Part shown: piece after piece, positions 4,810-61,198 of the stretch | Position numbering within the stretch: position 1 is the first letter of the stretch | Layout: each line of letters begins with the position of its first letter | Origin: Mobula hypostoma | Taxonomy: Eukaryota | Reading direction: 5' to 3' | Assembly (NCBI RefSeq): GCF_963921235.1 | Contig: NC_086097.1 | Coordinates: 106,518,001 to 106,582,000, forward strand | Length of the DNA: 64,000 bases | Notes under the pieces: model-generated | Told to the model about the DNA's origin: nothing | The model's database searches: none | The model's input: the letters and a program-made list of their open reading frames with translations, nothing else | Program-made: the position numbers and the translations under genes

Positions 4810-6371
4810 CAGGTTTTCCCCACCATCTGAAGGTAGTGTGTTCCTATGAAATGGTTCGTAAGCCGAAATGTTGTAAAGCGAAGAAGCAATTACCATTTAT
4901 TTATATGGGAAAATTTTGTGAGCGTTAGCAGACCCAAAAATAACCTACCAAGTCATGCCAAATAACACAACCTAACATAACAGTAACGTATAATAAAAGC
5001 AGGAATGATATGATAAATACACAGCCTATATAAAGTAGAAATACTTCCCTACAACGATTGCCTGCACAGATCTCCGTAACGAAAATCGCACGCAAGCGCT
5101 CTCGGTAGAAAATCTCATGCAAGTGCTGTTGGCATAAACACGCTCTCCAGTAACCTTTAAACTATGAAGCTGCCAAATCTACCAAATAACACGTAAAAAT
5201 ACACAGCCTATATAAAGTAGAAATAATGTATGTACAGTGTAGTATCACTTACGGGAATTGGGAAGACAGCGCCGAGCACACTGATGATGGTGTGTTAGAC
5301 TGAGTCATCGCAGGCTGGGTGGTGCAGTGGCCCCCACCCTCCAGGCCGCCGACCCGATACATTGCCGGGAAAAACGCAGGCGTCCAATGGTAGCCAGGAG
5401 GCACACAGCGCATAGTTAAGAAAAAAGCTGAAATAAACATGCTAATTAATTAGGTGCTGCCCGGCATGTAAATGTCGGTGCAGATCAGAGGTGATTGCTG
5501 ATTGCATCGCCTCTGGTCTGGGCCGACAATTACGTGCTAGGTGGCACCTAATTAATTAGCATGTTTATTTTGGCTTTTTTCTTAAAGATGTGCTGTGTGC
5601 CTCCCGGCTATCGCTGCGTTCACTGCGAATTGGTACAGTATCTGTCTGGGGCCCGGGTGTTGGGGTGGTGGGACTCGGGTGTCATCTCATTGTCGATCAG
5701 GGCAGGCAGCTGATCTCTGCCTCACCCGCCTCGATGTCGAAGGTCGAGGTTCATCGTCTGCTGTGGCTGATCTGGAAGGCTTGCTTGACTGCTGAGTCCT
5801 GCACATTTTTCTATCATACAGTTGTTTATAAGCACTCAAACCATCCTGCAAATATCCCCTAAATCTACGTATCCTTTCAAAATTAAAGTTGTACTTTATC
5901 ATTGCAGTGTAAATCTCACGTAGTTGCTTCACTTTCTGCATTCAGTTTTGATTGTTATCCTTTCCTCTTCCAATCGCATCAGCTTTTCATCTATCAGTTC
6001 ATGGGATGCCAAAACCTCTTCAACATCATCTTCGTCAACTTCCACAAGCCAAACTCACTTTGTCCTTGCTTCGTTCACCACGATCGAAACGCTTAATTAT
6101 GTCTAGTTTTACGCTAAGTGTAACACCCTTACTCTTTCAGGCACCTTAGAACTCGCCTTGCTAACGGCTGCTCAATGCAACGTGTTTAAGCAATGCCGTT
6201 CCGAATCTGGGGCAGAGCGGCTGCTCAGGGTGCGCTGCCTTTTATCGCGCACTGAATTTTTTTTTCGTAACAGTGAAAACACCTTCTGAAAGCGAAAGCA
6301 GGGTACTAATGTAGGTCTTTCGTAACAATGAGGTTTCGTAAAGTGAATGTTCGAAAAGCAGGGGACACCTG
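4810..6371 (-). mobile_element. Internally deleted Tigger/pogo DNA transposon
   Basis: Imperfect TIRs (CAGGTTTTCCCC... and ...GGGGACACCTG) with TA at 4808-4809; minus strand encodes a CENP-B/psq-like N-terminus 'KGVTLSVKLDIIKRFDRGERSKD' joined to a Tigger-like acidic C-terminus 'VEVDEDDVEEVLASH'; DDE domain absent. Confidence 0.75.
5391..5610. repeat. About 220-bp imperfect palindrome inside the Tigger remnant
   Basis: TAGCCAGGAGGCACACAGCGCAT..TTAAGAAAAAAGCTGAAATAAACATGCTAATTAATTAGGTGC.. is mirrored by ..GCACCTAATTAATTAGCATGTTTATTTTGGCTTTTTTCTTAA..ATGTGCTGTGTGCCTCCCGGCTA. Confidence 0.9.
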
Positions 6372-14893: not shown

Positions 14894-15366
14894 TTTTTAG
14901 CCTCTTACCTACTTTTGACCTTTTAATCTCTAATTGCCAAAATACCTTTGACCATCTTGACTTCTCGTTCCATCCTAACCCACTCTGAAGGTGGAATACT
15001 GCCCCCACCCCCAGAAGAAGTAGGGCTCCATTCAGTACGGTCCTGGTTGATCTGTGCTGGATCAGCTCCGCTTCTGTCCCAGCTCCTCATAGTCTACAAT
15101 TCTTCAATCTTTCAAATAGTTCTCTATCTCCACCTTAAATACATCTAATGATCTGACCACCAAAATATACTGATGCAGAGAATTTCAGAGATTCACTACC
15201 TGCCGAGAGATGGAATTTCTAAACACTCAAACAAAATGCTGGAGGGACTCAGCAAGTCAAGCAGCATCTAGAAAGATGAGAAAACAGTTGACATAAGTTT
15301 CAGGCAACACACATCAAAGTTGCTGGTGAACGCAGCAGGCCAAGCAGCATCTGTAGGAAGAGGTGC

Positions 15367-15402
15367 AGTCGACGTTTCAGGCCGAGACCCTTCGTCAGGA
15401 CT
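15367..15402 (-). ncRNA. Minimal type-I hammerhead ribozyme in the PLE pLTR
   Basis: Minus strand reads AGUC CUGACGA AGG GUCUCGG CCU GAA ACGU C GACU: CUGANGA and GAAA core, GUC cleavage triplet, stem I AGUC/GACU, stem II AGG/CCU, palindromic ACGU replacing stem III. Confidence 0.8.
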
Positions 15403-15704
15403 AACTGAAGGAAGAGCGAGTAAGGGATTTGAAAGTTGGAGGGGCAGGGGGAGATCCAAAATAATAGGAGAAGACAGGAGGGGGAGGGATAGAGCCAAGA
15501 GCTGGACAGGTGATAGGCAAAAGGGGATACGAGCGGATCATGGGACAGGAGGTCCGGGAAGAAAGACAAGGTGGGGGGGGGCCCGAGGATGGGCAAGAGG
15601 TATATTCAGAGGGACAGAGGGACAGAGGGAGAAAAAGGAGAGTGAGAGAAAGAATGTGTGCATAAAAATGAGTAACAGATAGGGTACGAGGGGGAGGTGG
15701 GGCC

Positions 15705-17187
15705 TTAGCAGAAGTTAGAGAAGTCGATGTTCATGCCATCAGGTTGGAGGCTACCCAGACGGAATATAAGGTGTTGTTCCTCCAACCTGAGTGTGGCTTC
15801 ATCTTTACAGTAGAGGAGGCCGTGGATAGACATGTCAGAATGGGAATGGGATGTGGAATTAAAATGTGTGGCCACTGGGAGATCCTGCTTTCTCTGGCGG
15901 ACAGAGCGTAGATGTTCAGCAAAGCGGTCTCCCAGTCTGCGTCGGGTCTCACCAATATATAAAAGGCCACATCGGGAGCACCGGACGCAGTATATCACCC
16001 CAGCCGACTCACAGGTGAAGTGTTGCCTCACCTGGAAGGACTGTTTGGGGCCCTGAATGGTGGTAAGGGAGGAAGTGTAAGGGCATGTGTAGCACTTGTT
16101 CCGCTTACACGGATAAGTGCCAGGAGGGAGATCAGTGGGGAGGGATGGGGGGGGACGAATGGACAAGGGAGTTGTGTAGGGAGCGATTCCTGTGGAATGC
16201 AGAGAGAGGGGGGGAGGGAAAGATGTGCTTAGTGGTGGGATCCCGTTGGAGGTGGCAGAAGTTACGGAGAATAATATGTTGGACCCGGAGGCTGGTGGGG
16301 TGGTAGGTGAGGACCAGGGGAACCCTATTCCTAGTGGGGTGGCAGGAGGATGGAGTGAGAGCAGATGTACGTGAAATGGGGGAGATGCGTTTAAGAGCAG
16401 AGTTGATAGTGGAGGAAGGGAAGCCCCTTTCTTTAAAAAAGGAAGACATCTCCCTCGTCCTAGAATGAAAAGCCTCATCCTGAGAGCAGATGCGTCGGAG
16501 ACGGAGGAATTGCGAGAAGGGGATGGCGTTTTTGCAAGAGACAGGGTGAGAAGAGGAATAGTCCAGATAGCTGTGAGAGTCAGTAGGCTTATAGTAGACA
16601 TCAGTGGATAAGCTGTCTCCAGAGACAGAGACAGAAAGATCTAGAAAGAGGAGGGAGGTGTCGGAAATGGACCAGGTAAACTTGAGGGCACGGTGAAAGT
16701 TGGAGGCAAAGTTAATAAAGTCAACGAGTTCTGCATGCGTGTAGGAAGCAGCGCCAATGCAGTCGTCGATGTAGCGAAGGAAAAGTGGGGGACAGATACC
16801 AGAATAGGCACGGAACATAGATTGTTCCACAAACCCAACAAAAAGGAAGGCATAGCTAAGACCTATACGGGTGCCCATAGCTACACCCTTAGGTTGGAGG
16901 AAGTGGGAGGAGCCAAAGGAGAAATTATTAAGAGTAAGGACTAATTCCGCTAGACGGAGCAGAGTGGTGGTAGAGGGGAACTGATTAGGTCTGGAATCCA
17001 AAAAGAAGCGTAGAGCTTTGAGAACTTCTTGATGGGGGATGGAAGTATATAAGGACTGGACATCCATGGTGAAAATAAAGCGGTGGGGGCCAGGGAACTT
17101 AAAATCATCTAAAAGTTTAAGAGCGTGAGAAGTGTCACGAACATAGGTCAGAAGGGATTGAACAAGGGGTGATAAAACAGTGTCGGG
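15705..17187 (-). pseudogene. PLE RT-GIY-YIG ORF, N-terminally truncated, one frameshift
   Basis: ORF 16132..17193 (RT) switches to the frame of ORF 15705..16601 (endonuclease) at a C8 run (G8 at 16147-16154) where the other copy has C7. Confidence 0.9.
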
Positions 17188-18213
17188 TGACATAAGTTTC
17201 AGTCTAAAATGTTTACTGTTTATTTTTCTCCATAGAGGCTACCTAACATACTGAGTTTCTCCAGAAGTTTATAAATGTTGCTCTTAGATTTTCAGCATGT
17301 GCAGAATCTCTTGCGTTCATGATTCTACACACTGTATTTGAAATAAGCATCATTATCTTGTTGCTATGTCCCCTTGTTTATGATCAACCAGCTGGAGAAA
17401 ACATCTACCCTAAGGATCTTATATGTTTGAACAGGAACATACCCCGTTCTTTAAAACTCCAAGCAATGCAAACAGGAATGATTAGCTTCTCTTGATTGGG
17501 CAATCCTCTCTGGTGAATCTCCTTTAGACTGCCTACAATGTTATTATTTTTAGGTGAAAGTACCGAAACTGTGAGCAGTATTACAGGTGTGACTTCATCG
17601 ATACCAGAAAAAACCGTAGCAAACTTCCTTATTCTTAAACACCAGTCCCTTTGCAATAAAACTTAATATGTCCTTTGCCTTTTCAATTACATTTTGGGCC
17701 TGCCTCATAAGTTTTTCATAATTCATGCGCTAGAACACCTCAATCCTTCTAACAAAACTTATTTGCAAGTCTTCCAGCAGATTATCTTTTGCTCCCTATT
17801 TCAGCATCTGGAGTCTCTTGTGTCTTCACTCATTTATAGTCTTTGGCAGAGTAGACTTGATGGACTGAACGGCCTCATTCTGTTCCTATGTCTTTGTCTA
17901 TTTTAATAATGATCAAACTTTTGATTACTCTTACTGAAGTGCATGACTTCATATTTCCCCATATTAAACTCCATATTTGTCAGGTTTATGTCCAGTTCCT
18001 AAATCTATATAGTGATTCTGCAATAGGGTATGTCCTTTACACAAAATACCCTCTTTTCATATCATTGGCAAAATTGGAAAAATTACATTTCTTTCTCTCC
18101 TCCAGGTAATTAATGTAAATAGTGAATAGCTGAGGGCCAAGACAGCTCACTGGGTTTATCCACTAGTTACATTTCTCCAGCTTCTAAAGGACCAATTTAA
18201 TCCAATTCAATAT

Positions 18214-18567
18214 ACCCAAAATGCTGGAAGAACTCAATAGGTTGGGCAGCATCTGTGGAGAGGAATAAACAGTCGACTTTTCAGGTCGAGTCACTTCATC
18301 AAGATTGGAAAGGAAAGGGGAAGAAGCCAGAATAAGAAGGTAGAGAGAGGGGAAGTGGAAGGAGTACATGACGGCAGATGATAGTTGAAAACGGGTGAAG
18401 GGAAAGGTGGGTGATTGGGGGAGGGGGATAAAATGAGAAGCTAGGAGGTAAAAGGTGGAAGAGGTTGAAGAAAAAGGAATTTGATAGCAAAGGAGTGGAC
18501 CATAGGAGAAAGGGAATGAGGAGGGCCACCAGACAGAGGTGATAGGCGGGTGAGGAGAAGAGAAGGA
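18214..18567 (-). mobile_element. Older PLE pLTR fragment with degenerate hammerhead (18271-18306)
   Basis: Collinear with 15304-15560; the ribozyme region reads AAUC UUGAUGA AGUGACUCGACCU GAA AAGU C GACU on the minus strand. Confidence 0.7.
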
Positions 18568-18681: not shown

Positions 18682-19769
18682 TGTCACGGTCTGGTCCATG
18701 AAGTCCTCATTCTGGTTAACGGGCCGGTCCATCGATCCTTATTCCAGGTTTTCCGGTTTTCCCTTGTTCTGTTGGGTGGCTAAATTGAAGCACATGATTC
18801 TCATTTTGGGCTAGCTACATAAATAGCTCCTAGGTTCAGCTTCGGTTGCTGGACTGTTCCCTTCCCTTCACCTTCCTCCTGAAGCCTTGCCTGCAACCTC
18901 GCCTGTATCGCTGTCAAGTTCTACTGCTGGAGCAAGACCGGAGCCTTGCTGTGTCTAGATAAGGAACTGTCGTTCGTTGTTTGAAACTGTCCCTGTGTCC
19001 ACGCTTTCGCTAGGTAGGTCCAGCCGTTTGCTGCTACCTTGTGTTGGGAACCGTCTTTGTGTCTATGCCTTCGCTAGGTAGGTCTGGCCATTTGCCGCTA
19101 CCTTGTGTTTGGAACTATCTCTGCATCCACGCCTTTGCTAGGTAGGTCCGGCCGTTTGCTGCTACCTTGTATTAAGAACCATCTTGTCATGTTCAGCATT
19201 CTGTGTATGAGTCCCAGCCCTACATCCTGTTCCCAAGGAGGGATCCTGGCTCTTTGTTCTGTGTATGAGTCCTGGCCCTACTTCCTGTTCCCAAGGAGGG
19301 ATCCCGGCTCTGTGTTCTGCGTTCCTGTCTCCCAACACCAAGGCTCTGTGTTCTGCGTTCTTGTCTCCCAAGACCAAGTCAAGGCTTCGGGGTCTCATCC
19401 TGCCCTTGTGCCTTGCCCAGCCCAGAAGTACTTCGTCTAGTCCAAGCCAAGGCTTTGTGTTCTCGTCCTGTGCGGGAGTTTCACGTCCAGTCCGGTAGCC
19501 ATGTCTTGTCCCCGCCTAGATCCGGAGTCCGAGCCTGAGTCAAGACCCAGGTTCTGAGTCCCTGTCCAGTCCCTGGCTCGGAGTCCTCGTCCATGTTCTG
19601 CTTTTCTCGTCTAGTCCTAGCCAGGTCCTGTATCCTAGTCTCGTCCAGGGCCTGTGTTTTGTCCAGCGTTATTTCTTCCCTTGCCTTCTCGACACACATA
19701 GTCCTGTTCCTAGCACTTCAGTGCCTGTGTCTTGCACTTGAGTCCGCCATCAACGTCCTTCATATGACA
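18682..19769 (+). mobile_element. Probable solo LTR (Gypsy-like), about 1.09 kb
   Basis: Begins TGTCA and ends TGACA (5-bp terminal inverted repeat); TATA-like TACATAAATAG near 18817; internal tandem repeats; possible 5-bp TSD TACAC (18677-18681) versus T|ACAT split by the CR1 at 19771. Orientation is tentative. Confidence 0.65.
18984..19310 (+). repeat. Tandem repeats within the LTR: about 3 x 63-bp unit, then about 2 x 58-bp unit
   Basis: CGCTAGGTAGGTC..GCCGTTTGCTGCTACCTTGTGTT recurs near 19008, 19072 and 19137; CTGTGTATGAGTCC..CCTGTTCCCAAGGAGGGATCC recurs at 19201 and 19259. Confidence 0.85.
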
Positions 19770-19770
19770 T

Positions 19771-22700
19771 CTGTCGTCATTGGAGACTCTATAGTCAGGG
19801 GAGCAGACAGGAGATTTTGTGGACGTGAGAAGGACACCTGCATGGTTTGTTGCCTCCCGGGTGCCAGGGTCCGGGTTGCCTCTGACCGGGTGCACGACAT
19901 CCTGGTACGAAAGAGAAAGCAGCCAGAAGTCGTGATACATGTTGGTACCAACGACGTAGGCAGGAAGAGGGATGAGATCCTGAAGTGTGAGTTTCGGGAA
20001 CTAGGCAGAAGGCTAAAGAACAGGACCTCAAGGGTAGCGTTCTCAAGATTGCTGCCAGTGCCAAGTGACAGTGATGGTAAGAATTGGAGAAGATGGCAGT
20101 TGAAAGCGTGGCTGAAGAGTTGGTGCAAGGAGCAGGGTTTTAGATTTTTGGATTATTGGGATCTTTTCTGGGGAAGGTGGGACGTGTACAGATTGGATGG
20201 GTTGCACCTGAACTCAAGGGGGAGCAATATCCTTGCAGGTAGGTTTGCTAGCATGGTTCAGGAGGGTTTAAAATAATTTGCAAGGAGGATGGGATCCGAA
20301 GCGATAGAGCAGTGAAAGAAGTGCATGTAGTAAAGCCAGATCTGACATATAGAGAGGCCTTGAGGAAAGAGAAGCAGAATAAAGGGTGTAAAGGTAGTAA
20401 GGTAGAAGGGCTAAAGAGTGTGTACCTCAATGCAAGAAGCATCAGGAACAAAGGTGATGAACTGAGAGCTTGGATACATACATGGAATTATGATGTAGTG
20501 GCCATTACAGAGACTTGGCTGGCACCAGGGCAGGAATGGATTCTCAATATTCCTGGATTTCAGTGCTTTAAAAGGGATAGAGGGGGGGACAAAGGGGAGG
20601 AGGGGTGGCATTACTGGTCAGGGATACTATTACAGCTACAGAAAGGGTGGGTAATGTAGCAGGATCCTCTTTTGAATCAGTATGGGTGGAAGTCAGGAAC
20701 AGGAAGGGAGCAGTTACTCTATTGGGGGTATTCTATAGGCCCCCTGGTAGCAGCAGAGATACAGAGGAGCAGATTGGGAGGCAGATTTTGGAAAGGTGCA
20801 AACATAACAGGGTTGTTATCATGGGTGACTTTAACTTCCCTAATATTGATTGGCACCTGATTAGTTCCAAGGGTTTAGGTGGGGCAGAGTTTGTTAAGTG
20901 TGTCCAGGAGGGATTCCTGTCACAGTATGTTGACAGGCCGATGAGGGGGAATGCCATACTAGATCTAGTACTAGGTAATAAACCGGGTCAGGTCACAGAT
21001 CTCTCAGTGGGTGAGCATCTGGGGGACAGTGACCACCGCTCCCTGGCCTTTAGCATTATCACGGAAAAGGACAGAATCAGACAGGACAGGAAAATTTTTA
21101 ATTGGGGAAGGGCAAATTATGAGGCTATAAGGCTAGAGCTTGCGGGTGTGAATTGGGATGATGTTTTTGCAGGGAAATGTACAATGGACATGTGGTCGAT
21201 GTTTAGAGATCTCTTGCAGGATGTTAGGGATAAATTTGTCCCGGTGAGGAAGATAAGGAATGGTAGGGCGAAGGAACCATGGGTGACAAGTGAGGTGGAA
21301 AATCTAGTCAGGTGGAAGAATGCAGCATACATGAGGTTTAGGAAGCAAGGATCAGATGGGTCTATTGAGGAATATAGGGAAGCAAGAAAGGAGCTTAAGA
21401 AGGGGCTGAGAAGAGCAAGAAGGGGGCATGAGAAGGCCTTGGTAAGCAGGGTAAAGGAAATCTCCAAGGCATTCTTCAATTATGTGAAGAACAAAAGGAT
21501 GACAGGAGTGAAGGTAGGACCAATTAGAGATAAAGGTGGAAAGATGTGCCTGGAGGCTGTGGAAGTGAGTGAGGTCCTCAATGAATACTTCTCTTCGGTA
21601 TTCACCAATTAGAGGAAATTTGATGACAGTGAGGACAATATGAGTGAGGTTGATGTTCTGGAGCATGTTGATATTAAGGGAGAGGAGGTGTTGGAGTTGT
21701 TAAAATACATTAGGACGGTTAAGTCCCCGGGGCCTGACGGAATATTCCCCAGGCTGCTCCACGAGGTGAGGGAAGAGATTGCTGAGCCTCTGGCTAGGAT
21801 CTTTATGTCCTCGTTGTCCACGGGAATGGTACCGGAGGATTGGAGGGAGGAAAATGTTGTCCCCTTGTTCAAAAAAGGTAGTAAGGATAGTCCGGGTAAT
21901 TATAGACCAGTGAGCCTTGTGTCTGTGGTGGGAAAGCTGTTGGAAAAGATTCTTAGAGATAGGATCTATGGGCATTTAGAGAATCATGGTCTGATCAGGG
22001 ACAGTCAGCATGGCTTTGTGAAGGGCAGATCGTGTCTAACAAGCCTGATAGAGTTCTTTGAGGAGGTGACCAGGCATATAGATGAGGGTATTGCAGTGGA
22101 TGTGATCTACATGGATTTTAGTAAGGCATTTGACAAGGTTCCACACGGTAGGCTTATTCAGAAAGTCAGAAGGCATGGGATCCAGGGAAGTTTGGCCAGT
22201 TGGATTCAGAATTGGCTTGCCTGCAGAAGGTAGAGGGTCATGGTGGAGGGAGTACGTTCAGATTGGAGGGTTGTGACTGGTGGTGTCCCACAAGGATCTG
22301 TTCTGGGACCTCTTCTTTTCGTGATTTTTATTAATGACCTGGATGTGGGGGTAGAAGGGTGGGTTGGCAGCTTGCAGACAACACAAAGATTGGTGGTGTT
22401 GTATATAGTGTAGAGGATTGTCGAAGATTGCAGAGAGACATTGACAGGATGCAGAAGTGGGCTGAGAAGTGGCAGATGGAGTTCAACCCGGAGAAGTATG
22501 AGGTGGTACACTTTGGAAGGAGAAGCTCCAAGGCAGAGTACAAAGTAAATGGCAGGATACTTGGTAGTGTGGAGGAGCAGAGGGATCTGGGGATACATTG
22601 AAGGGATTGAAGGCAGATAAATCCCCAGGGCCAGATGGTCTGAAGGAAGTAGCCCAAGAAATAGTGGATGCATTAGTGATAATTTTTCAAAACTCGTTAG

Positions 22701-29589: not shown

Positions 29590-30070
29590 TATTAAAGATC
29601 ACAATGAACCCCTCGGGATTCTCTTTCACCTTGCCTGGCACAGCAACCTCATGTCCTATTTTAGCCCTCCTGATTTTTCTCTTAAGTGTTTTTTGCATTT
29701 TCCTTACTCCTCCAGTCCTTCATCTGATCTCAACTGCCTATACCTGCTATGTACCTCCTTCATTTTCGATACCAGGCTCTCAATAACCAAGGTTCCCTAA
29801 ACCCATTAGACTTGACTTTTACTCTGACTGATACATACAGATTCTGAACACTCAATACTTTACTTTTGATGGCCTCAAATTCACCAAGCATCTCTTTGCC
29901 GGAAAATGAGATAACCCAATCCATGCTTGCCAGATTTCACCTGATGTAGTATCATACTCTCCCTAGTTGGGATCTCTACATATTGATTAAGGAGATTTCC
30001 TGATTGCACTTGGCAATGCTGTCCCATCCAGATTTTCTACAGTATTGGAGTCCTAGTCTATATGTGGAAA
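29590..30070 (-). mobile_element. Old CR1 ORF2 fragment
   Basis: 'LKRKIRRAKIGHEVAVPGKVKENPEGF' in ORF 29438..29698. Confidence 0.7.
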
Positions 30071-30074
30071 GAAA

Positions 30075-31730
30075 ATTACCTATTATCCCGGTGGATAACT
30101 AACCTAATCATTTCCCCTCTATCATCATGCTCCTCCATCTGGTGGAACTGGATCTCACCCTCAACAAGTTCTCTTTCAGCTCCTCTCATTTTCTCCAAAC
30201 CAACGTGTGTCCATGGGCACTCACATGGGACCCAGCTACATGTGCCATACATGAAACAGTGCACATTCCAAGCTTACACTGTTAATACTCCTAATTCTTT
30301 CACTACTACATTTATGACGACATTGGCGCTGCTTCCTGCACCCATGCTCAGCTTCTCAGTTTCATCAATTTGGCCTCCAACTTCAACCCTGTCCTCAAAG
30401 TTACATGGTCCATCTCTGACACCTCTCTTCCCTTTCACAATCTATCTGTCCCCATTTCTGGAGACAGACTATCAACTGACATCTACAAACCCACTGACTT
30501 TCAGAATTATCTTGACTATATCTTTTCCCATCCCGTCACATATAAAAATACTACTGCCTTCTCTCAATTCTATCTCTGCCACACCTGTTCCCAGGATGAG
30601 GCTTTCCATTCTAGAATATTTGAAATCCCCTCCTTATTCAAAGAATGGGGTTTCCTTTTCAGCACCATCGATGCTGCCCTCACCCAGCATCTCCTCCATT
30701 TCCCACACATCTGCCTTCATTTCATTCTTTTGCTATCGTAACAAGAGTAGGGTTCCCCCTCGTACTTACCTACCAACACACAAACCTCTGCATCCAGCAT
30801 CTCATGCTCAAGTTCTGCCATCTCCAACAGGATCCTACTACCTTTCCTTTCTCCAATGCCCCCCCCCACACCCCACTTTCCACAGGGATTGCTCTCTGCG
30901 TGACTCCCTTCTCCAGTAGTCCCTCCCCTTTGATCTCCTGGCACCAACCCTAGCAAGTGTGATGTGCTACAGCTGCACCTACACCTTCTCCCTCACCATC
31001 ATTCAGGGCCTCAAACAACATGTCCCGGTGAGGCAACACTTCACTTGTGAGTCTTTCAGGGTCACCTATTGTATCTAGTACAGTGTTCTCTACACAGGTG
31101 AGACCCACTGTAGACAGGGGACTGCTTTGTTCAGCACCTTTGTTCCATCCACCACAAAAGGTAGAATCTCCTGGTGACGACCACTTCAATTTGATTTCCT
31201 ATTCCCACACCAATATGTTTGTCCATGACCTCCTGCTGCCATGATGAGGTCAAGCTCAGGTTGGAGGAGCAACACCTCATATTCTGCCTGAGTAGCCTTG
31301 AACGTAAGGCATGAACATCGATTTCATTAACTTTCGCTAATTACTCCCCCCTCCCTCTCTCTTTATCTATTTCCCATTTTGGCTTCCCTCTCATCCCTTC
31401 TTCTTCTCACCTGCCCATCACCTTCCTCTAGTTTCCCTTCTCCTTCTCTTTATTCCATGGTACATTTCCTTATCTTCTATTAAATTCTTTCGTCTACAGC
31501 ACTTCTTCCACCTATCACCTCCCAGCTTTTTACTTCATCCCCACCCCTCCCACCTGGTCTTACCTATCACCTGCCAGTTTGTACTCATTTCCCTGCCTCC
31601 ACCTTCTTACTCTGGCTTCTGCTCCCTTCCTATCCTATGCTGTTGAAGGGTCTTGGCTCGAAAAATCAAAATATTTATTTCTCTCCAGAGATGCTGCTGA
31701 CCTGATGAGTTCCTCCAGCAATTTCTGAGT
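30075..31730 (+). mobile_element. Old, heavily mutated Penelope-like element with degenerate pLTR/hammerhead (about 31636-31672)
   Basis: 'ASNFNPVLKVTWSISDTSLPF..LSTDIYKPTD..CSQDEAFHSR'; collinear with 55021-56560 through the GIY-YIG region and the pyrimidine-rich pLTR. Confidence 0.85.
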
Positions 31731-32274
31731 GATGATCAGGACTTGAATGCCTTGCTGGAGGTTCTACATATTAAATGGGCAAGGGGCCTGCCAGGTCCAA
31801 CAGGAGAAATGAGAAAGCTAGAACTCTCATCTCCAGGAAAGAGAATCTTCACACAATACAACAATATCACAAGAAATTTAATTATCTCACAGAATATACC
31901 AAGGTGAACTGCATACCGGTGAATAAACAACTGTCTCACACTTCTCGAGATACAAACACACAACTCAAAAGTGGTTTTTCATTTACTCTACTCACATTGC
32001 AAGCATACGAACACTCTCCTGCTCTGTAAATTTTGGGAAGACTGTAAAATTTTACGCTTTCCATTACCCACATTAATATCAAATCTCCAGAGGTAAGTTA
32101 TAAGCCCTGCACGTTTTCCATTTAGTGTAAACAGTGAGGAATAAGAGCGAGTTCCTCAAAAGTGCAATGCCTCTCCAAGATTAAAGGGACTATCCTTCTC
32201 AAGGCCAAAATGACTAGAAGCTGTAAACAATTGTGAATTCTCGTTCCAGAAAATGCCTTCTCTCAATTCCTCCA

Positions 32275-32400
32275 TCTCTCCCACATATGCTCTCAGGATG
32301 AGGCATTCCACAACAAAGGAGAAAAGGGCTTCCCTTCCTCCACCATCAACGCTGCCCTCCAATGCATCTCTTCTATTTCACACATGTCAGCCCTCACGTC
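32275..32400 (+). mobile_element. PLE RT-thumb fragment
   Basis: GCTCTCAGGATGAGGCATTCCA..GGGCTTCCCTTCCTCCACCATCAAC matches 55404-55490. Confidence 0.65.
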
Positions 32401-33938
32401 ATTCTTCACGGAATTACACCTTATGACATTTCAATTGATCTCAAAGATTTTCCTGTCTGGCTTCAATCAGGAACAGTCTACCTGCACAATTTCACTGATA
32501 TGTAGCATGTCTGGCACAGTTGAATTGGCTGAAATATTTTATGGGCAATGCTTTGGAAGCGTGCCTCTCAAAGTCCAATCCTACGTGCCCATCGTAAGAG
32601 GTGGAAGGCAGGCCAACAGGACTCTGGTGAAGCTGTATGGGCCAATCCCCTGTATAGTAGATACACCCACTATACCATTGACTTTGGATGATGGAGATGT
32701 GGGGTCGTCGATGAGGAGCTAAGGGCCCAGGAAGAAGAAGCAGCAACAGCTTTGGAAGCATCATTGAAACAACTTTATCAGTGTTTCCATATGAGCAAGC
32801 AAAGGAGTTTTCATAGTTGACAGAATTCCCAAAATTTCCCGTAGGCCTAGAGTGCACTCACATAACAACTATAGTTACAGAGACCTCCTAGACCATTTCT
32901 TGCCAGGAGTGCAGGACTATCATTCCTGGGAATCTTCACAATCATTATGTTCATAAGCCCTTTGTACAAATGCCTCATGTGGGGATTGATCTTCATCAGC
33001 TTGTCCCAGGTTCTTGTGGCCATCATTGAAACACCTTCCCTCCCATTAGTACAGCATCTACTCTTGAAGCAGCATCCATCCCGGTGCAGTGGGATCCACC
33101 CCTTCCCAGTCTGAAAGTATGCAGCTTGTGTTCTAGTGTGTCCATTTAAGAGCTATTTCCCACAGCTGCACCTGTTAGACTGCATGCCTGCAGCTGAATT
33201 TGCATAGATCAGTAAGCTCACAGAGGAGCATTACAAACATAGCATCCTCAACACAGAAGGCCGCATTGAATGAGTCTTCAAAAAACAACATTAGGTTAAG
33301 ACATAATGTAACTAAAATGTGATAAGGCATTTTCTACACACTTGTCTGACTGCTCCACAGATGCTGCCTGATTTTTCAATGCTTTTGCAGTTTATTTCTG
33401 CTCCACTAGAATCTGACTATTTACATCTTTGGCATTTTGAACTTTAAGAAGGCTTTGGTTCCTGCAATTTGAGCCAACTTGCTTATCGAAGACTGTGGCA
33501 GTTAGTTAAATACATTCTATACTTACCTACAGCTTCTCTGCAATTCAGTCATAATTGTCAAAACTGGTTAGTCCCGTTTTATGCTTTGGTCCAGACATAT
33601 ATTAGATGTTAATTGTGAACTGTTGCCTGCCTCTGGACTCCAGGTCAGAGCATTACACTATTTTTACTCATGTTCATCTCAGCAAACTACAATGCCCCCC
33701 GTCATGAGATGAATCAGCTAAAATTATAGTATCCATGATAAATTAACAAGACAGGTGATCTGACACTTCTTACCAGGTTTTATAACCCAGGTAACAAAAA
33801 TACTAAAATGTACACAAAGAAAGATGGCGCTGGTAACTCAAACAACAGGAATCTCTGCAGATGCTGGAAATTCAAGCAACATACATAAAAGTTGCTGGTG
33901 AACGCAGCAGGCCAGGCAGCATCTCTAGGAAGAGGTGC

Positions 33939-33974
33939 AGTTGACGTTTCAGGCTGAGACCCTTCGTCAGGACT
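33939..33974 (-). ncRNA. Minimal hammerhead ribozyme (one stem-I mismatch)
   Basis: Minus strand: AGUC CUGACGA AGG GUCUCAG CCU GAA ACGU C AACU. Confidence 0.65.
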
Positions 33975-33998
33975 AACTGAAGGAAGAGTCCTTCAGTT

Positions 33999-34034
33999 AG
34001 TCCTGACGAAGGGTCTCGGCCTGAAACGTCGACT
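33999..34034 (+). ncRNA. Minimal hammerhead ribozyme
   Basis: AGTC CTGACGA AGG GTCTCGG CCT GAA ACGT C GACT. Confidence 0.8.
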
Positions 34035-35773
34035 GCACCTCTTCCTAGAGATGCTGCCTGGCCTGCTGCGTTCACCAGCAACGTTTATGTGTGTGGCGCT
34101 GGTAACTGGCGACTTTGCGCGTGCTCTCCCGAGCAAACTGCCCTCTCCACTATCCTATATCCGAGGAACCCTTTTAAACCTCCAATCTGGCAAGATCAAG
34201 ATCAACAACACCCTGGCAAAGCTACTGACCCAGCTGGAGACCACCACGCCAGAATTGCTCCTTAAATTCCAGACCGCACCTGGACCAGATCAGCGAGGCC
34301 CACCACGTTCCCGGAGACCCGTGGTTTGCTACTGTGCCGGAGCGTTTGGAGACACAGCCCATTCTGACCAGCACCTCTCCAGACCAGATGACCACACAGA
34401 AGTGACGGCATAGACCTCAAGATGCCCCAGATGCTTCCCTGGAGCGACCACCGTAAAGCCCCGTTGGTGGCCATCCACAGCTGCCAGAAGTGAGGCCTCC
34501 GCCGCCGACCTCGGAAATCGAGCCCGAGGCTCCGCTGGAGTGGAGGCCTCTGCAACCATGACTCGGCTTAAGGACTTGTTTCAGCCAGGAGCCCGGCCAT
34601 CCGGGATTAAGTGTCGGCTTCGGGGCCCGACCCAATCGACAGCCCGGGCCCCCGGCAGCTGGAAGTGGCAGCGGAGCTTCCCCCGTTACTCGGCCCGACC
34701 CGGAGCGTCCAACAACGCGACCCGCTGATCGATCCCCACGGGATGGGTCCACCAACCGCAAAGGGCTGACAACAACGCACTGCATCGATGGAAACCTGGA
34801 AAGGTGCACTATTTACCGAGGAAGCGTGGGAAAAGAGCTGGGCTGCTGGTCAGATTGAAGCTGAGGGGCTTCGGGGTCCCTATGCCCACCATCCTACTAG
34901 CTAATGTGCAAGCCATAGACAACAAGGTGGATGATCTTAAAGGGAGACTCACCTACTGCAGGGATATGCAGAACTGCTGCGTATTCTGTTTCACTGAGAC
35001 CTGACTCGCCCCTGCCACCCCCGACTGTGCCATCCGACCGGAGGGATTTTCGATCCATCAGAGGGACTGCACGGTGTCTTTGGGCAAGACGAGGGGAGGT
35101 GGTGTCTGCCTACTGATCAACACTGCGTGGTGCTCGGACACAGTGTCACTGACAAGCTCCTGCAGCCCGGACCTGGAACACCTGTCGGTGAAGTGTCGTC
35201 CCCACTATCTGCCATGGGAATTCACCTCAGTCATACTGACAGCGGTCTACATTCCCCCCCACCCCCCAGGCGGACGTGGAGTTGTCTCTGAACATACTGT
35301 ATGCCAACATCAGTGAACTTGAGACCAGGTATCCGGAGGCTTTGCTCATTACAGCCAGGGACTTTAACCAGGCCAACCTCAGAAAGGCGCTGCCAAAGTT
35401 ATACCAACATGTCTCCTGCCCCACTAGAGGCCCGAATATACTTGACCACTGCTACACAGCAGTCAAGGATGCCTACCGTTCCGTCCCACGACCTCACTTC
35501 AGAAAATCCAACCATCAGGCCGTACTCCTCCTCCCGGCTTACAAACAGAAACTGAAGCGGGAGGTTACAATGTCAAAAGTAGTGTCGCGTTGGACGGAGG
35601 AAACAGATGAGGTCCTCCGTAACTGCTTTGAATCGGTGGACTGGTTAGTATTCAAGGACTCAGCAGCTAACCTCGATGAGTATGCCTCAGCTGTCACGGA
35701 CTTTATTTGGAAATGCACAGAGGACTGTGTGTCTCGCAAGACGATCTGAGTTTTCCCTAACCGGAAACCTTGG

Positions 35774-40100: not shown

Positions 40101-40278
40101 AAGACTTTGAACAAGTTGTCAATGATAGGATTCTGCTATTTAAAAAAGAAGCCCTCCATGTACTTTGAAATTATACTCTTTGGTCATTAAACATAAGAAA
40201 CAGAAGTTTCTACCAACATTATTCATTTTGAGTCATCTTCCCTCAGGAAACTTCTAACCTATTTGCTCAGTTAAATAA

Positions 40279-40355
40279 GCAACATACACAAAATGCTGGA
40301 GGACCTCAGCAAGTCAGGCAGCATCTATATAGGGGAACAAATAATTAATGTTTCT
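40279..40355 (-). mobile_element. PLE terminal fragment
   Basis: GCAACATACACAAAATGCTGGAGGACCTCAGCAAGTCAGGCAGCATCTAT matches the arm ends of the fold-back elements. Confidence 0.65.
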
Positions 40356-41454: not shown

Positions 41455-41671
41455 ACACACACAAAATGCTGGAAGAACTCAGCAGGCCAGGCAGCATCTA
41501 TGGAAAAGAGCACAGTTGACATTTCAGGCCAAGACCCTTCAGCAGTTCGGTCTCGGCCCGAATCGTCGACTGTACTCTTTTCCATAGATGCTGCCTGGCC
41601 TGCTGTGCTCCTCCAGCAGTTGGTGTGTGTTGCTCGGATTTCCAGCATCTGCAGATTTTCTCTTGTTTGTG
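41455..41671. mobile_element. Older fold-back PLE mini-element
   Basis: Arms about 41455-41536 and 41549-41632; turn-around inside the hammerhead; tail on the right; TSD-like ATTATCCAAACA (41443-41454) and ATTATCCCAACA (41672-41683). Confidence 0.85.
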
Positions 41672-43681: not shown

Positions 43682-43931
43682 AAGATAGTATAGGCACTGC
43701 TAAATCTTCCCTACTCTTAGGGAAGTGTTTAGGGAGGTGGTCCAAGAGAGCTCCTCTGTGATGTTCACTCTCAAAAAAATTAAAGCTGGAGACCCTTTCC
43801 ATTGCTTCACCATTTATGCGTAATGGAGCTTGTTCATACTTTCTTCATTTCCTGAAATCAATAACCATTTCTTTGTTGAGTGAAAAGTTATGGTTATTGC
43901 ACCATCCAAACCATCCATTGCACCATCCAAA

Positions 43932-46900
43932 ATCATGTGAGATGTGGCAGTTTTGGGGGAACGCCCCTCTCCCGCAGAGTCACATCTGCCAGAAGTGCAT
44001 ACAGCTGGGCGATCTGGAAGACCATGTAAGGAATCTGGATCAGCAGCTGGATGACCTTCGACTCATAAGGGAGAATGAGGCAGCCAAAAATGAGAGCTAC
44101 AGGGAGGTAGTCACACCTAGGCTGTCGGAAGCAGGTCGTTGGGTGATAGTCCGAGGGGGGAAAGCGAAGGTGAGCAGACAGGTAGTGCAGAGCACCCCTG
44201 TAGCCATTCCCCTGAATAATAAGTTTACAGTCCTGGACGGGGACGACCGACCAGATGTGAGCCGCAGTGGTAGGGCCTTCGGCACTGTGTCTGACCCAGT
44301 GGTGCAGAAGAGTGGTACGGAGAAGAGGAGAGCTGTCATCATTGGAGACTCTATAGTCAGGGGAGCAGACAGGAGATTTTGTGGACGTGAGAAGGACACC
44401 TGCATGGTTTGTTGCCTCCTGGGTGCCAGGGTCCGGGATGTCTCTGACCAGGTGCACGACATCCTGGTACGAAAGGGAAAGCAGCCAGAAGTTGTGATAC
44501 ATGTTGGTACCAACGACGTAAGCAGGAAGAGGGATGAGGTCCTGAAGTGTGAGTTTTGGGAATTAGGCAGAAGGCTGAAGAACAGGACCTCAAGGGTAGC
44601 GTTCTCAGGATTGCTGCCAGTGCTATGTGACAGTGATGGTAAGAATTGGAGGAGATGGCAGTTGGATGTGTGGCCGAGGAGTTGGTGCAGGGAGCAGGGT
44701 TTTAGATTTTTGGATCAGTGGGATCTCTTCTGGGGAAGGTGGGACCTGTACAGATTGGATGGGTTGCACCTGAACTCGAGGGAGAGCAATATCCTTGCAG
44801 GTAGGGTTGCTAGCCTGGTTCGGGAGGGTTTAAACTAATTTGCAAGGGGGATGGGACCCGGAGCAATAGAGCAGTAAAAGAAGTGCATGGAGTAAAGCCA
44901 GATCTAACATATAGAGAGGCCTTGAGGAAAGAGAAGCAGAATAAAGGGTGTAAAGGTAGTAAGGCAGAAGGGATGAAGTGTGTGTACCTCAACGCAAGAA
45001 GCATCAGGAACAATGATGATGAACTGAGAGCTTGGTTACATACATGGAATTATGATGTAGTGGCCATTACAGAGACTTGGCTGGCACCAGGGCAGGAATA
45101 GATTCTCAATATTCCTGGATTTCAGTGCTTTAAAAGGGATAGAGAGGGGGAACAAAGGGGAGGAGGAGTGGCATTACTGGTTGGGGATACTATTACAGCT
45201 ACAGAAAGGGTGGGTAATGTAGCAGGATCCTCTTTTGAGTCAGTATGGGTAGAAGTCAGGAACAGGAAGGGAGCAGTTACTCTATTGGACGTATTCTATA
45301 GGCCCCCGGTAGCAGCAGAGATACAGAGGTGCAGATTGGGAGGCAGATTTTGGAAAGGTGCAAAAATAACAGGGTTGTTATCATGGGCGACTTTAACTTC
45401 CCTAATATTGATTGGCACCTGATTAGTTCCAAGGGTTTAGATGGAGCAGAGTTTGTTAAGTGTGTGCAGGACGGATTCCTGTCACAGTATGTGGACAGGC
45501 TGACTAGGGAGAATGCCATACTAGATCTAGTACAAGGTAATGAACCGGGTCAGGTCACAGATCTCTCAGTGGGTGAGCATCTTGGGGACAGTCACCACCG
45601 CTCCCTGGCCTTTAGCATTATCATGGAAAAGGATAGAATCAGAGAGGACAGGAAAATTTTTAATTGGCGAAGGGCAAATTATGAGGCTATAAGGCTAGAA
45701 CTTGCAGGTGTGAATTGGGATGATGTTTTTGCAGAGAAATGTACTATGGACATGTGGTCGATGTTTAGAGATCTCTTGCAAGATGTTAAGGATAAATTTA
45801 TCCCAGTGAGGAAGATAAAGAATGGTAGGGTGAAGGAACCATGGGTAACAAGTGAGGTGGAAAATCTAGTCAGGTGGAAGAAGGCAGCATACATGAAGTT
45901 TAGGAAGCAAGGATTGGATGGGTCTATTGAGGAATATAGGGATGCAAGAAAGGAGCTTAATAAGGGGCTGAGAAGAGCAACAAGGGGGAATGAGAAGGCC
46001 TTGGCAAGTAGGGTAAAGGAAATCTCCAAGGCATTCTTCAATTATGTGAAGAACAAAAGGATGACAGGAGTGAAGGTAGGACCGATTAGAGATAAAGGTG
46101 GGAAGATGTGCCTGGAGGCGGTGGAAGTGAGCGAGGTCCTCAATGAATACCTCTCTTCGGTATTCACCAATGAGAGGGAATTTGATGACGGTGAGGACAA
46201 TATAAGTGAGGTTGATGTTCTGGAGCATGTTGATATTAAGGGAGAGGAGTTGTTGGAGTTGTTAAAATACGTTAGGACCGTTAAGTCCCCGGGGCCTGAC
46301 GGAATATTCCTCAGGCTGCTCCATGAGGCGAGGGAAGAGATTGCTGAGCCTCTGGCTAGGAACTTTATGTCCTCATTGTCCACGGGAATGGTACCGGAGG
46401 ATTGGAGGGAGGCGAATGTTGTCCCCTTTTTCAAAAAAAGTAGTAGGGATAGTCCGGGTAATTATAGACCAGTGAGCCTTACGTCTGTGGTGGGAAAGCT
46501 GTTGGAAAAGATTCTTAGAGATAGGATCTATGGGCATTTAGAGAATCATGGTCTGATCTGGGACAGTCAGCATGGCTTTGTGAGGGTCAGATCGTATCTA
46601 ACAAGCCTGATAGAGTTCTTTGAGGAGGTGACCAGGCATGTAGATGAGGGTAGTGCAGTGGATGTGATCTATATGGATTTTAGTAAGGCATTTGACAAGG
46701 TTCCACACGGCAGGCTTGTTCAGAAAGTCAGAAGGCATGGGATCCAGGGAAGTTTGGCCAGATGGATTCAGAATTGTCTTGCCTGCAGAAGGCAGAGGGT
46801 CATGGTGGAGGGAGTACATTCAGATTGGAGGATTGTGACTAGTGGTGTCCCACAAGGATCTGTTCTGGGACCTCTACTTTTCGTGATTTTTATTAACGAC

Positions 46901-52900: not shown

Positions 52901-54457
52901 CCGTGATATTATCCCTGACTAGCAATGCCATAACCCCAACTCTTTTGTATCCCTCCCTGTTCTTTTGAAATCCTGACATACTCAGCAGCCACTCCTGCCC
53001 CTGAGACATCCAAGTCTCTGTAATGGCCACAACATCCTTATTCCACATATTGATCCATAGAACCATTGAACCATAGAAACTACAGCACAGAAACAGGCCA
53101 TTTGGCCCTTCTTGGCTGTGCCAAACCATTTTCTGCCTAGCCCCACTGACCTGCACACGGACCATATCCCTCCATACACCTCCCATCCATGCATCTGTCC
53201 AATTTATTCTTAAATGTTAAAAAAGAACCCGCATTTACCACCTCGTCTGGCAGCTCATTCCATACTCCCACCACTCTCTGTGTGAAGAAGCCCCCCCTAA
53301 TGTTCCCTTTAAACTCACCCTTAACCCATGTCCTCTGGTTTTTTTCTCCCCTTGCCTCAGTGGAAAAAGCCTGCTTGCATTCACTCTATCTATACCCATC
53401 ATAATTTTATATACCTCTATCAAATCTCCCCTCATTCTTCTACGCTCCAGGGAATAAAGTCCTAACCTATTCAACCTTTCTGTGTAACTGAGTTACTCAA
53501 GTCCCAGCAATATCCTTGTAAACCTTCTCTGCACTCTTTCAACCTTATGTATATCCTTCCTGTAATTTGGTGACCAAAACTGAACACAATACTCCAGATT
53601 CGGCCTCACCAATGCCTTATACAACCTCATCATAACATTCCAGCTCTTATACTCAATACTTTGATTAATAAAGGCCAATGTACCAAAAGCTCTCTTTACG
53701 ACCCTATCTACCTGTGACGCCACTTTTAGGGAATTTTGTATCTGTATTTCCAGATCCCTCTGTTCCACTTCACTCCTCAGTGCCTTACCATTAACCCTGT
53801 ATGTTCTACCTTGGTTTGTCCTTCCAACGTGCAATACCTCAAATTTGTCTGTATTAAACTCCATCTGCCATTTTTCAACCCATTTTTCCAGCTGGTCCAA
53901 GTCCCTCTGCAGGCTCTGAAAACCTTCCTCACTGTCTACTACACCTCCAATCTTTGTATCATCAGCAAATTTGCTGAGCCAATTTACCACATTATCATCC
54001 AGATCATTGATACAGATGACAAATAACAATGGACCCAGCACTGATCCCTGTGGCACACCACTAGTCACAGGCCTCCACTCAGAGAAGCAATTCTCTACCA
54101 CCATCTTTAGCTTCTTCCATTAAGCCAATGTCTAATCCAATTTACCACCTCTCCTTGTATACCTAGCGACTGAATTTTCCTAACTAACCTCCCATGAGGG
54201 ATCTTGTCAAAGGCCTTACTGAAGTCCATGTAGACAATATCCACGGCCTTCCCTTCATCCACTTTCCTGGTAACCTCCTTGAAAAACTCCAATAGATTGG
54301 TCAAACATGACCTACCATGCACAAAGCCATGTTGACTCTCCCTAATGAGTTCCTGTCTATCCAAATGCTTGTAGATTCTGTCTCTTAGTACTCCCTCCAA
54401 TAACTTACCTACTACCGACGTTAAACTTACTGGCCTATAATTTATAGGAAGAAGCGC

Positions 54458-54493
54458 AGTCGACGTTTCAGGCCGAGACCCTTCGTCAGGACT
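54458..54493 (-). ncRNA. Minimal hammerhead ribozyme
   Basis: Minus strand: AGUC CUGACGA AGG GUCUCGG CCU GAA ACGU C GACU. Confidence 0.8.
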
Positions 54494-56478
54494 AACTGAA
54501 GGAAGAGTGAGTAAGGGATTTGAAAGCTGGAGGGGGAGGGGGAGATGCAAAATGATAGGAGAAGACAGGAGGGGGAGGGATGGAGCCGAGAGCTGGACAG
54601 GTGATAGGCAGAAGGGGATACGAGAGGATCATGGGACAGGAGGTCCGGGAAGAAAGACGGGGGGGGGGTGACCCAGAGGATGGGCAAGAGGTATATTCAG
54701 AGGGACAGAGGGAGCCCATAGCTACACCTTTAGTTTGGAGGAAATGGGAGGAGCAAAAGGAGAAATTATTAAGAGTAAGGACTAATTCTGCTAGACGGAG
54801 CAGAGTGGTGGTAGAGGGGAACTGATTAGGTCTGGAATCCAAAAAGAAGCGTAGAGCTTTGAGACCTTCCTGATGGGGGATGGAAGTATATAGGGACTGG
54901 ACATCCCAGGTGAAAATAAAGCGGTGGGGGCCAGGGAACTTAAAATCATCTAAAAGTTTAAGAGCGTGAGAAGTGTCACGAACATAGGTCGGAAGGGATT
55001 GAACAAGGGGTGATAAAACACCGTATGGGTCCTAGCTATGCCTGCCTTTTTGTTGGGTTTGTGGAACAATCTATGTTCCGTGCCTATTCTGGTATCTGTC
55101 CCCCACTTTTCCTTCGCTACATCGACGACTGCATTGGCGCTGCTTCCTGCACGCATGCAGAACTCGTTGACTTTATTAACTTTGCCTCCAACTTTCACCC
55201 TGCCCTCAAGTTTACCTGGTCCATTTCTGACACCTCCCTCCCCTTTCTAGATCTTTCTGTCTCTGTCTCTGGAGACAGCTTATCCACTGATGTCTACTAT
55301 AAGCCTACTGACTCTCACAACTATCTGGACTATTCCTCTTCTCACCCTGTCTCTTGCAAAAACGCCATCCCCTTCTCGCAATTCCTCCGTCTCCGCCGCA
55401 TCTGCTCTCAGGATGAGGCTTTTCATTCTAGGACGAGGGAGATGTCTTCATTTTTTAAAGAAAGGGGCTTCCCTTCCTCCACTATCAACTCTGCTCTTAA
55501 ACGCATCTCCCCCATTTCACGTACATCTGCTCTCACTCCATCCTCCCACCACCCCACTAGGAATAGGGTTCCCCTGGTCCTCACCTACCACCCCACCAGC
55601 CTCCGGGTCCAACATATTATTCTCCGTAACTTCCGCCACCTCCAACGGGATCCCACCACTAAGCATATCTTTCCCTCCCCCCTCTCTCTGCATTCCGCAG
55701 GGATCGCTCCCTACACAACTCCCTTGTCCATTCGTCCCCCCCATCCCTCCCCACTGATCTCCCTCCTGGCACTTATCCGTGTAAGCGGAACAAGTGCTAC
55801 ACATGCCCTTACACTTCCTCCCTTACCACCATTCAGGGCCCCAAACAGTCCTTCCAGGTGAGGCATCACTTCACCTGTGAGTCGACTGGGGTGATATACT
55901 GCGTCCGGTGCTCCCGATGTGGCCTTTTATATATTGGTGAGACCCGACGCAGACTGGGAGACCGCTTTGCTGAACATCTACGCTCTGTCCGCCAGAGAAA
56001 GCAGGATCTCCCAGTGGCCACACATTTTAATTCCACATCCCATTCCCATTCTGACATGTCTATCCACGGCCTCCTCTACTGTAAAGATGAAGCCACACTC
56101 AGGTTGGAGGAACAACACCTTATATTCCGTATGGGTAGCCTCCAACCTGATGGCATGAACATTGACTTCTCTAACTTCCGCTAGGCCCCACCTCCCCCTC
56201 GTACCCCATCTGTTACTCTTTTTAATGCACACATTCTTTCTCTCACTCTCCTTTTTCTCCCTCTGTCCCTCTGAATATACCTCTTGCCCATCCTCTGGGT
56301 CACCCCCCCCCCCTTCTTTCTTCCCGGACCTCCTGTCCCATGATCCTCTCGTATCCCCTTCTGCCTATCACCTGTCCAGCTCTCGGCTCCATCCCTCCCC
56401 CTCCTGTCTTCTCCTATCATTTTGCATCTCCCCCTCCCCCTCCAGCTTTCAAATCCCTTACTCACTCTTCCTTCAGTT

Positions 56479-56514
56479 AGTCCTGACGAAGGGTCTCGGC
56501 CTGAAACGTCGACT
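56479..56514 (+). ncRNA. Minimal hammerhead ribozyme
   Basis: AGTC CTGACGA AGG GTCTCGG CCT GAA ACGT C GACT. Confidence 0.8.
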
Positions 56515-61004: not shown

Positions 61005-61198
61005 AACAACAGGAATTCTGCAGATGCTGGAAATTCAAGCAACACACATCAAAGTTGCTGGTGAACGCAGCAGGCCAGGCAGCATCTCTAGGAAGAGGTA
61101 CAGTCAACGTTTCAGGCCGAGACCCTTCGTCAGGACTAACTGAAGGAAGATCTCTTACTAACTCTTCCTTCAGTTCACCAGCAACTTTGATGTGTGTT
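61005..61198. mobile_element. Fold-back PLE mini-element with internally deleted right arm
   Basis: 34-nt tail plus full left arm (61005-61150); right arm TCTTCCTTCAGTT jumps via GTT to CACCAGCAACTTTGATGTGTGTTGC; TSD-like GCTGGCACATATGGA (60990-61004) and GCTAGCACATACGGA (61199-61213). Confidence 0.85.
61102..61137 (-). ncRNA. Minimal hammerhead ribozyme (GUU cleavage triplet)
   Basis: Minus strand: AGUC CUGACGA AGG GUCUCGG CCU GAA ACGU U GACU. Confidence 0.72.

Follow-up and report, generated by a model that had tools for sequence, protein, structure and literature searches.

The window, a 64,000-nt stretch of the Mobula hypostoma genome (contig NC_086097.1, positions 106,518,001 to 106,582,000), harbors five insertions (A to E) with target-site duplications (TSDs) of 12 to 15 bp, and B, C, D, and E are two-armed with their 3' ends pointing outward (Table 1). 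The young carrier is an EN+ Penelope-like element (PLE), in which an RT is followed by a C-terminal GIY-YIG endonuclease and for which a pLTR, an inverted partner, a TSD, and a tail were all found. In A and B, a 36-nt hammerhead motif is found in sense orientation about 300 nt past the RT-EN stop codon, as expected for a pLTR location. The GIY-YIG domain of copy B (55663-56184) scores 23.5 bits and passes the Pfam cutoff. A C-X4-C-X2-C linker is situated at residue 178 of the EN frame, ahead of the endonuclease. A zinc-finger linker of the C-X2-5-CxxC type, placed between RT and EN, is a mark of Neptune and Nematis PLEs (Craig et al. 2021, PMC8557442), and the linker together with the vertebrate-like context places the carrier, by inference, in the Neptune clade. 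A homologue search with the EN-region protein, limited to longer proteins, returned one match, an uncharacterized protein of Narcine bancroftii (39% identity, 75% of the region), which is uninformative on the PLE clade and hints at a relative in another cartilaginous fish.

Table 1. PLE insertions, hammerhead motifs, and associated features of the window
Feature	Position	Strand	Remarks
15-bp TSD of A	15289-15303 and 17188-17202		Target is the center of a two-arm copy of the same repeat that is older and decayed
Insertion A, 5'-truncated EN+ PLE	15304-17187	-	RT fragment, Zn-knuckle linker, GIY-YIG, pyrimidine-rich 3' UTR/pLTR, hammerhead, short tail
Minimal type-I hammerhead motif of A (flagged copy)	15367-15402	-	C17 at 15371; predicted cut between 15371 and 15370
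Frame with C-X4-C-X2-C linker and GIY-YIG (A)	15705-16640	-	Stop at 15705; GIY-YIG E = 2e-4, 22 bits versus cutoff of 22.6
RT fragment with YIDD motif (A)	16132-17187	-	Frame differs from that of the endonuclease part; RVT_1 E = 0.0015, below Pfam cutoff
Decayed hammerhead, older subfamily	18271-18306	-	
Decayed hammerhead at 3' end of older PLE	31636-31671	+	Older PLE at ~30102-31740, 68-70% identity to A/B
Insertion C, two head-to-head pLTR ends	33839-34093		Hammerheads 33939-33974 (-, two changes) and 33999-34034 (+, exact); 14-bp TSD
Insertion E, older two-arm copy	41455-41671		Decayed, 5'-truncated hammerheads 41514-41545 (-) and 41549-41571 (+); 12-bp TSD, 1 mismatch
Insertion B, 5' part inverted	54444-56611		pLTR (-) 54444-54713; inverted RT piece 54710-55020; RT-EN-pLTR (+) 55021-56611
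Exact hammerhead of B left arm	54458-54493	-	Arm end 18 nt past predicted cut
Exact hammerhead of B right arm	56479-56514	+	Arm end 101 nt past predicted cut (long tail)
Tail with predicted 8-bp stem (AGAUGCUG/CAGCAUCU)	56529-56594	+	Unchanged in 4/4 long-tail copies
Insertion D	61005-61198		Left-arm hammerhead 61102-61137 (-, C17 to U); right arm without motif; 15-bp TSD, 2 mismatches

The insertions resemble canonical EN+ PLE insertions (Arkhipova et al. 2013, PMC3846280; PMC8557442) in their inverted, 5'-truncated partner, their head-to-head pLTRs with a TSD, a tail that is optional on one arm, and a microhomology-type deletion, although the TSDs are longer here than the 8 to 10 bp of the rotifer examples in those papers. 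The older decayed two-arm copy around A (15223-15303 and ~17203-17284) is consistent with a tendency of PLEs to enter earlier copies, which has been reported (PMC6765202). The 13-bp TSD of B (54431-54443 and 56612-56624) lies within a LINE RT ORF. In the left arm of B (54444-55020), a pLTR piece is joined straight to an internal RT piece, with ~1.25 kb of the element skipped, which we interpret as a template jump or a deletion within the inverted arm. A and B, which have different TSDs and are independent, share a nearly identical 5' limit in the RT (17187 versus the equivalent of 17179; B at 55020), suggesting that both stem from one source copy already truncated or that the RT meets a strong stop there (n = 2). 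In its right arm (61150-61198), D jumps from just before the hammerhead to the middle of the tail at a short common GTT, and the whole motif is gone. The sequence-only reading of this DNA had described the motif as conserved in every young terminal repeat; this internal deletion is an exception.

The flagged motif is composed of helix I (AGUC/GACU), the core CUGACGA followed by an extra A, helix II with its loop (GGGU-CUCG-GCCU), GAA, and the palindrome ACGU at positions 15.1 to 16.1. The 36-mer recurs without change at all four sites claimed for it, in A, in both arms of B, and in the right arm of C. Two further copies had been read as single-site variants. This is correct for the copy in D, in which C17 is changed to U, while the left copy of C carries two changes rather than one: a loop II G to A and, at the helix I base adjoining the cut, another G to A. 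Each of the three changes is a CpG transition, C>T or G>A (CpG observed/expected is 0.33 across the window), which argues for decay after insertion; we therefore rejected the in-window variants as instances of covariation. The proposed relics were recovered at 18271-18306 (-), 31636-31671 (+), and 41514-41549 (-), with an additional arm at ~41549-41571 (+).

The core boxes CUGANGA and GAAA and the UH cleavage site are present as CUGACGA, GAAA, and GUC in the four exact copies, with U17 in one copy. Helix I closes the type-I fold with four Watson-Crick pairs. Helix III is absent, its place being taken by the palindromic ACGU, and a nested notation suffices to describe a strand-swapped dimer. 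Together with the GUC at positions 16.2 to 17 and the PLE context, this agrees with the identification of the motif as a PLE minimal type-I hammerhead (Cervera & De la Peña 2014, PMC4209133) made in the sequence-only reading. Judged by its sequence, the motif thus belongs to a class that has been known since 2014 (PMC4209133). The core pattern CTGACGA-N3-30-GAAA was matched six times in the window versus 0.39 expected and at most 2 in 100 shuffles, but these matches are copies of one repeat and hence not independent. An Rfam scan (E ≤ 1) gave no match to a hammerhead model. Its lone match was a mir-7131 hit below the Rfam cutoff at 5418-5585, a ~40-bp inverted repeat with an 87-nt spacer that is probably a MITE-like hairpin.

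Helix II had been drawn in an AGG/CCU register. RNAfold pairs GGGU with GCCU around the CUCG loop instead, with pair probabilities of 0.86 to 0.95 versus 0.02 for AGG/CCU, and in this register an additional A follows A9, in agreement with the published consensus (PMC4209133). Independent evidence on the register came from metagenome contigs, which were scanned with a pattern in which the core and the spacing were prescribed and helix I, the inner pairs of helix II, and position 17 could vary. The scan covered 124 of an estimated 910 loci; once matches with less than 12 nt of flank had been omitted, 127 matches with full flanks were kept, corresponding to 98 distinct 36-mers in 36 clusters. With one representative per cluster (n = 36), 54 of the 72 free helix II pairs were Watson-Crick in the GGGU/GCCU register after a bulged A (shuffle mean 20.5, maximum 33 in 2000 shuffles), while the AGG/CCU register, with 14 of 72 (shuffle mean 15.6), was not borne out. 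For helix I, 87 of 144 pairs were Watson-Crick versus a shuffle mean of 39.7 and a maximum of 56.

Both helices thus covary in relatives that represent the same kind of motif rather than the Mobula family: they were picked with a fixed core and differ from the window family at 11 positions or more, and the column shuffle ignores kinship between clusters. Position 17, which the pattern left free, is non-G in 90 of the 98 relatives. GIY-YIG homology was detected in the 250-nt flanks of 7 of the 124 loci, in six cases upstream on the strand of the motif, and the metagenome loci probably represent PLEs in the DNA of animal hosts. An estimated 910 metagenome stretches contain minimal hammerheads with this same spacing, and a few loci (L033, L034) bear inverted pairs. 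DNA patterns specific for the Mobula family had no matches in viral contigs and none in metagenome contigs, and a blastn comparison of the pLTR with the 124 metagenome loci likewise gave no match; one viral match to a 20-nt tail pattern, without a motif upstream, was dismissed as chance.

Variation closer to the window family was obtained by aligning contigs of sequencing runs to 56120-56612 at 80% likeness. This yielded 12,116 contigs from run X6 and 8,409 from X16 (both presumably RNA) and 132,059 from X5 (presumably DNA); in run X21, consisting of raw DNA reads of another organism, 1 of ~10 million reads aligned, which is uninformative. Among the 40 substitution rows listed out of 99, only one, 56502 T>C at 21, 30, and 33% of the depth, falls inside the motif. 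The young copies have a G10.1-U11.1 pair behind the extra A, and C11.1 is found in two of the four relics in the window. The T>C substitution turns G10.1-U11.1 into the canonical G10.1-C11.1, and it would break an A-U pair of the AGG/CCU register.

Loose contig ends pile up at the two edges of the motif, with 65 (X16) and 479 (X5) contigs before 56479 and 56 and 455 behind 56515. The X5 depth is 24.4 and 22.2 million in the motif bins, 10.3 million in the 3' linker, and 21 to 30 million in the tail. The piles and the dip in the linker suggest that other subfamilies remain alike over the motif while their flanks diverge. Counts of changes did not set the motif apart at a significant level, either in five of the six young window copies (3/180 in the motif versus 12/360 in the flanks, P = 0.41; the left copy of B, which misses the tail, was omitted) or among the listed read variants (1 of 36 positions variable in the motif versus 38 of 457 outside, P = 0.34).

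Measured from the predicted cut, the insertion end lies at 67 nt in A, 101 nt in the right and 18 nt in the left arm of B, 104 nt in the left and 63 nt in the right arm of C, and 101 nt in the left arm of D. The value of about 100 nt given by the sequence-only reading is therefore adequate for three of the six copies, while the flagged copy itself departs from it. The 3' ends cluster at 63 to 67 nt (two copies) and 101 to 104 nt (three copies) past the cut. No element end in the window coincides with the predicted cut between motif positions +32 and +33 (0/6 3' ends, 0/6 short-arm 5' starts), and the six 5' starts of the short arms of C, D, and E are spread from ~26 nt ahead of the motif to position 14 within it. 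Cleavage as the origin of the element ends was rejected on these grounds. Because the cut site is contained within the arms, uncut RNA was their likely template, as in the work on Anolis (Frangieh et al. 2024, PMC11167929). The short 3' end falls inside the predicted tail stem and the long 3' end just past it. No covariation was seen in this stem in the four long-tail copies. By analogy with Anolis, the tail stem is a candidate RT-binding element.

Taken together, we consider it probable that the 36-mer is a PLE minimal hammerhead predicted to cut after GUC only as an ACGU-paired dimer, likely slowly and with the help of the element's protein, and that uncut RNA was the probable template of the window copies, themselves likely passengers. 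According to this model, a latent ribozyme would be kept through selection on a master element. Two motifs, either in a head-to-tail tandem transcript or in trans, would swap strands, as proposed from published PLE work: pairing of ACGU with ACGU would form a 4-bp helix III between the two copies, each helix I would likewise form between copies, and both copies would cut 3' of C17, slowly and probably aided by a protein of the element. The element would owe its ends to internal initiation by the RT at two sites separated by ~35 nt (the PLE tail), and the dispersed copies of the window would probably be passengers made from uncut RNA. A minimal hammerhead of Schistosoma is active only as a dimer and at a low level (PMC4209133), and the Anolis PLE has a 30- to 40-bp tail, two RT start sites, an uncut template, and protein-assisted cleavage (PMC11167929). 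The dimer requirement, low rate, and protein help are extended to the window family by analogy with these two systems. No head-to-tail pair of motifs is present within the window, where the nearest young copies on the same strand are 6.6 kb apart and close pairs are inverted. Transcripts that run through a two-arm copy would include the antisense of their own motif, by which the motif would likely be blocked.

Computed energies raise the question of whether the motif has lost its activity. With nearest-neighbor parameters, the active swapped dimer has -9.5 kcal/mol, two monomers misfolded by pairing of GACG with CGUC have -20.0 kcal/mol, and the cofold minimum is -28.3 kcal/mol. Adding 13 nt of the native upstream sequence drops the helix I and II probabilities to 0.01, and its removal raises them to 0.65 to 0.95; the fold models omit tertiary and protein contributions. 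In addition, the 4-bp helix II of the young subfamily contains two G-U wobbles, a state seen in only 2 of the 36 cluster representatives. The motif of the young subfamily might accordingly be a dead or vestigial heirloom, weakened by the two wobbles and the competing upstream hairpin and kept beside the RT-binding tail. The rarity of the double wobble, the absence of the active fold from predictions in the native context, and the fact that all copies span the cut site speak in favor of this, as do Anolis PLE hammerhead mutants, whose insertion in vitro was unimpaired (PMC11167929), and the Naiad PLEs, which thrive without canonical hammerheads (PMC8557442). Loss of catalysis is nevertheless unlikely in our judgment, because all core bases are intact in four exact copies and the similarity between subfamilies breaks at the edges of the motif. 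Moreover, the equivalent GAYG/CGUY misfold is predicted in 13 of the 98 relatives, with C7 and C17, at a mean probability of 0.99; as these relatives covary strongly, misfolding in silico is no proof of lost function. Somewhat less probable still is a fold kept for a noncatalytic task: it might make the RT pause or switch templates, bind a protein, or signal RNA dimerization. Functions besides cleavage were left possible by the 2014 study (PMC4209133), and such a task would explain why the two-arm copies start in or just before the motif, yet the latter sample is small (six arms), and the catalytic core and the non-G position 17 of most relatives would be unexplained.

The effect of the upstream 13 nt can also be read as a switch. 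A pyrimidine tract and an AG abut helix I, with acceptor-like AGs ending at 56476 and 56480, and if they formed a 3' splice site, splicing would remove the strand that sequesters the core; in the Penelope hammerhead of Drosophila virilis, an intron indeed ends at helix I (PMC4209133). However, the same 1.6-kb pyrimidine-rich arm contains eight acceptor-like sites, no GT..AG joint is found among the 15 listed, out of 95, for 56120-56612 (the best donor-like sites, 55858 and 55877, lie outside), the loose ends before 56479 are pyrimidine-rich sequence of genomic type, and only 1 of 127 relatives has an AG at that position. Gating by splicing is thus very unlikely; if true, it would extend the D. 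virilis overlap of intron and helix I to a vertebrate Neptune-type element in which intron removal controls self-cleavage. A chance resemblance to a hammerhead, which would fit the lack of an Rfam hammerhead match and the folding z-score of only -0.37 for the 36-mer, is effectively refuted by the complete core, a site in the PLE pLTR as published, the covarying layout in relatives, and a family variant that restores the canonical pair. We therefore favor the slow, dimer-dependent ribozyme.

The motif is of the same type as the minimal hammerheads reported from PLEs of metazoans, including Xena, Poseidon, and Neptune of fishes (PMC4209133). In contrast to the published motifs, that of the young subfamily replaces the conserved G10.1-C11.1 with G10.1-U11.1 and contains a second wobble, and its host is a cartilaginous fish, a lineage unnamed in the compared portions of that paper. 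In the Poseidon element PAc of Anolis carolinensis (PMC11167929), a pLTR hammerhead is likewise followed by two favored 3' ends with ~35 nt between them, the copies run across the cut site and hence stem from uncut RNA, and both target strands are extended. The window element differs from PAc in its C-X2-5-CxxC linker, which is of the Neptune/Nematis and not the Poseidon type, and its young copies have no ATG inside the motif. Animal non-LTR retrozymes (10.64898/2026.07.22.740005) also carry type-I hammerheads derived from PLE pLTRs, with one chondrichthyan genome among their hosts, but retrozymes are head-to-tail tandem repeats, and no hammerhead-bearing tandem array exists in the window. A retrozyme arrangement was rejected, as no motif falls within any of the 10 TRF rows and the close pairs are inverted. 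In the open literature, we found no paper devoted to Penelope hammerheads of cartilaginous fish; the supplements of the retrozyme study, which lay outside the search, may list the family.

As a kind, the motif matters little, PLE minimal hammerheads having long been described. The in vivo role of PLE hammerheads is an open question in the field (PMC8557442, PMC11167929), and a young, very abundant family (132,059 contigs from one run) with a natural G10.1-C/U11.1 polymorphism is handy material for asking whether cleavage matters to transposition.

Other repeats are scattered between the insertions. Older PLE copies that are ~68 to 70% identical to A and B lie at 29987-31740 and 32237-32722, and a relic consisting of the tail only at 40277-40355. 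Short tandem arrays with periods of 64, 58, and 36 occupy 18978-19378, just upstream of a LINE-like element whose ORF with a GDSIVRG motif extends from 19539 to 20276; a related ORF is found at 43762-44838.
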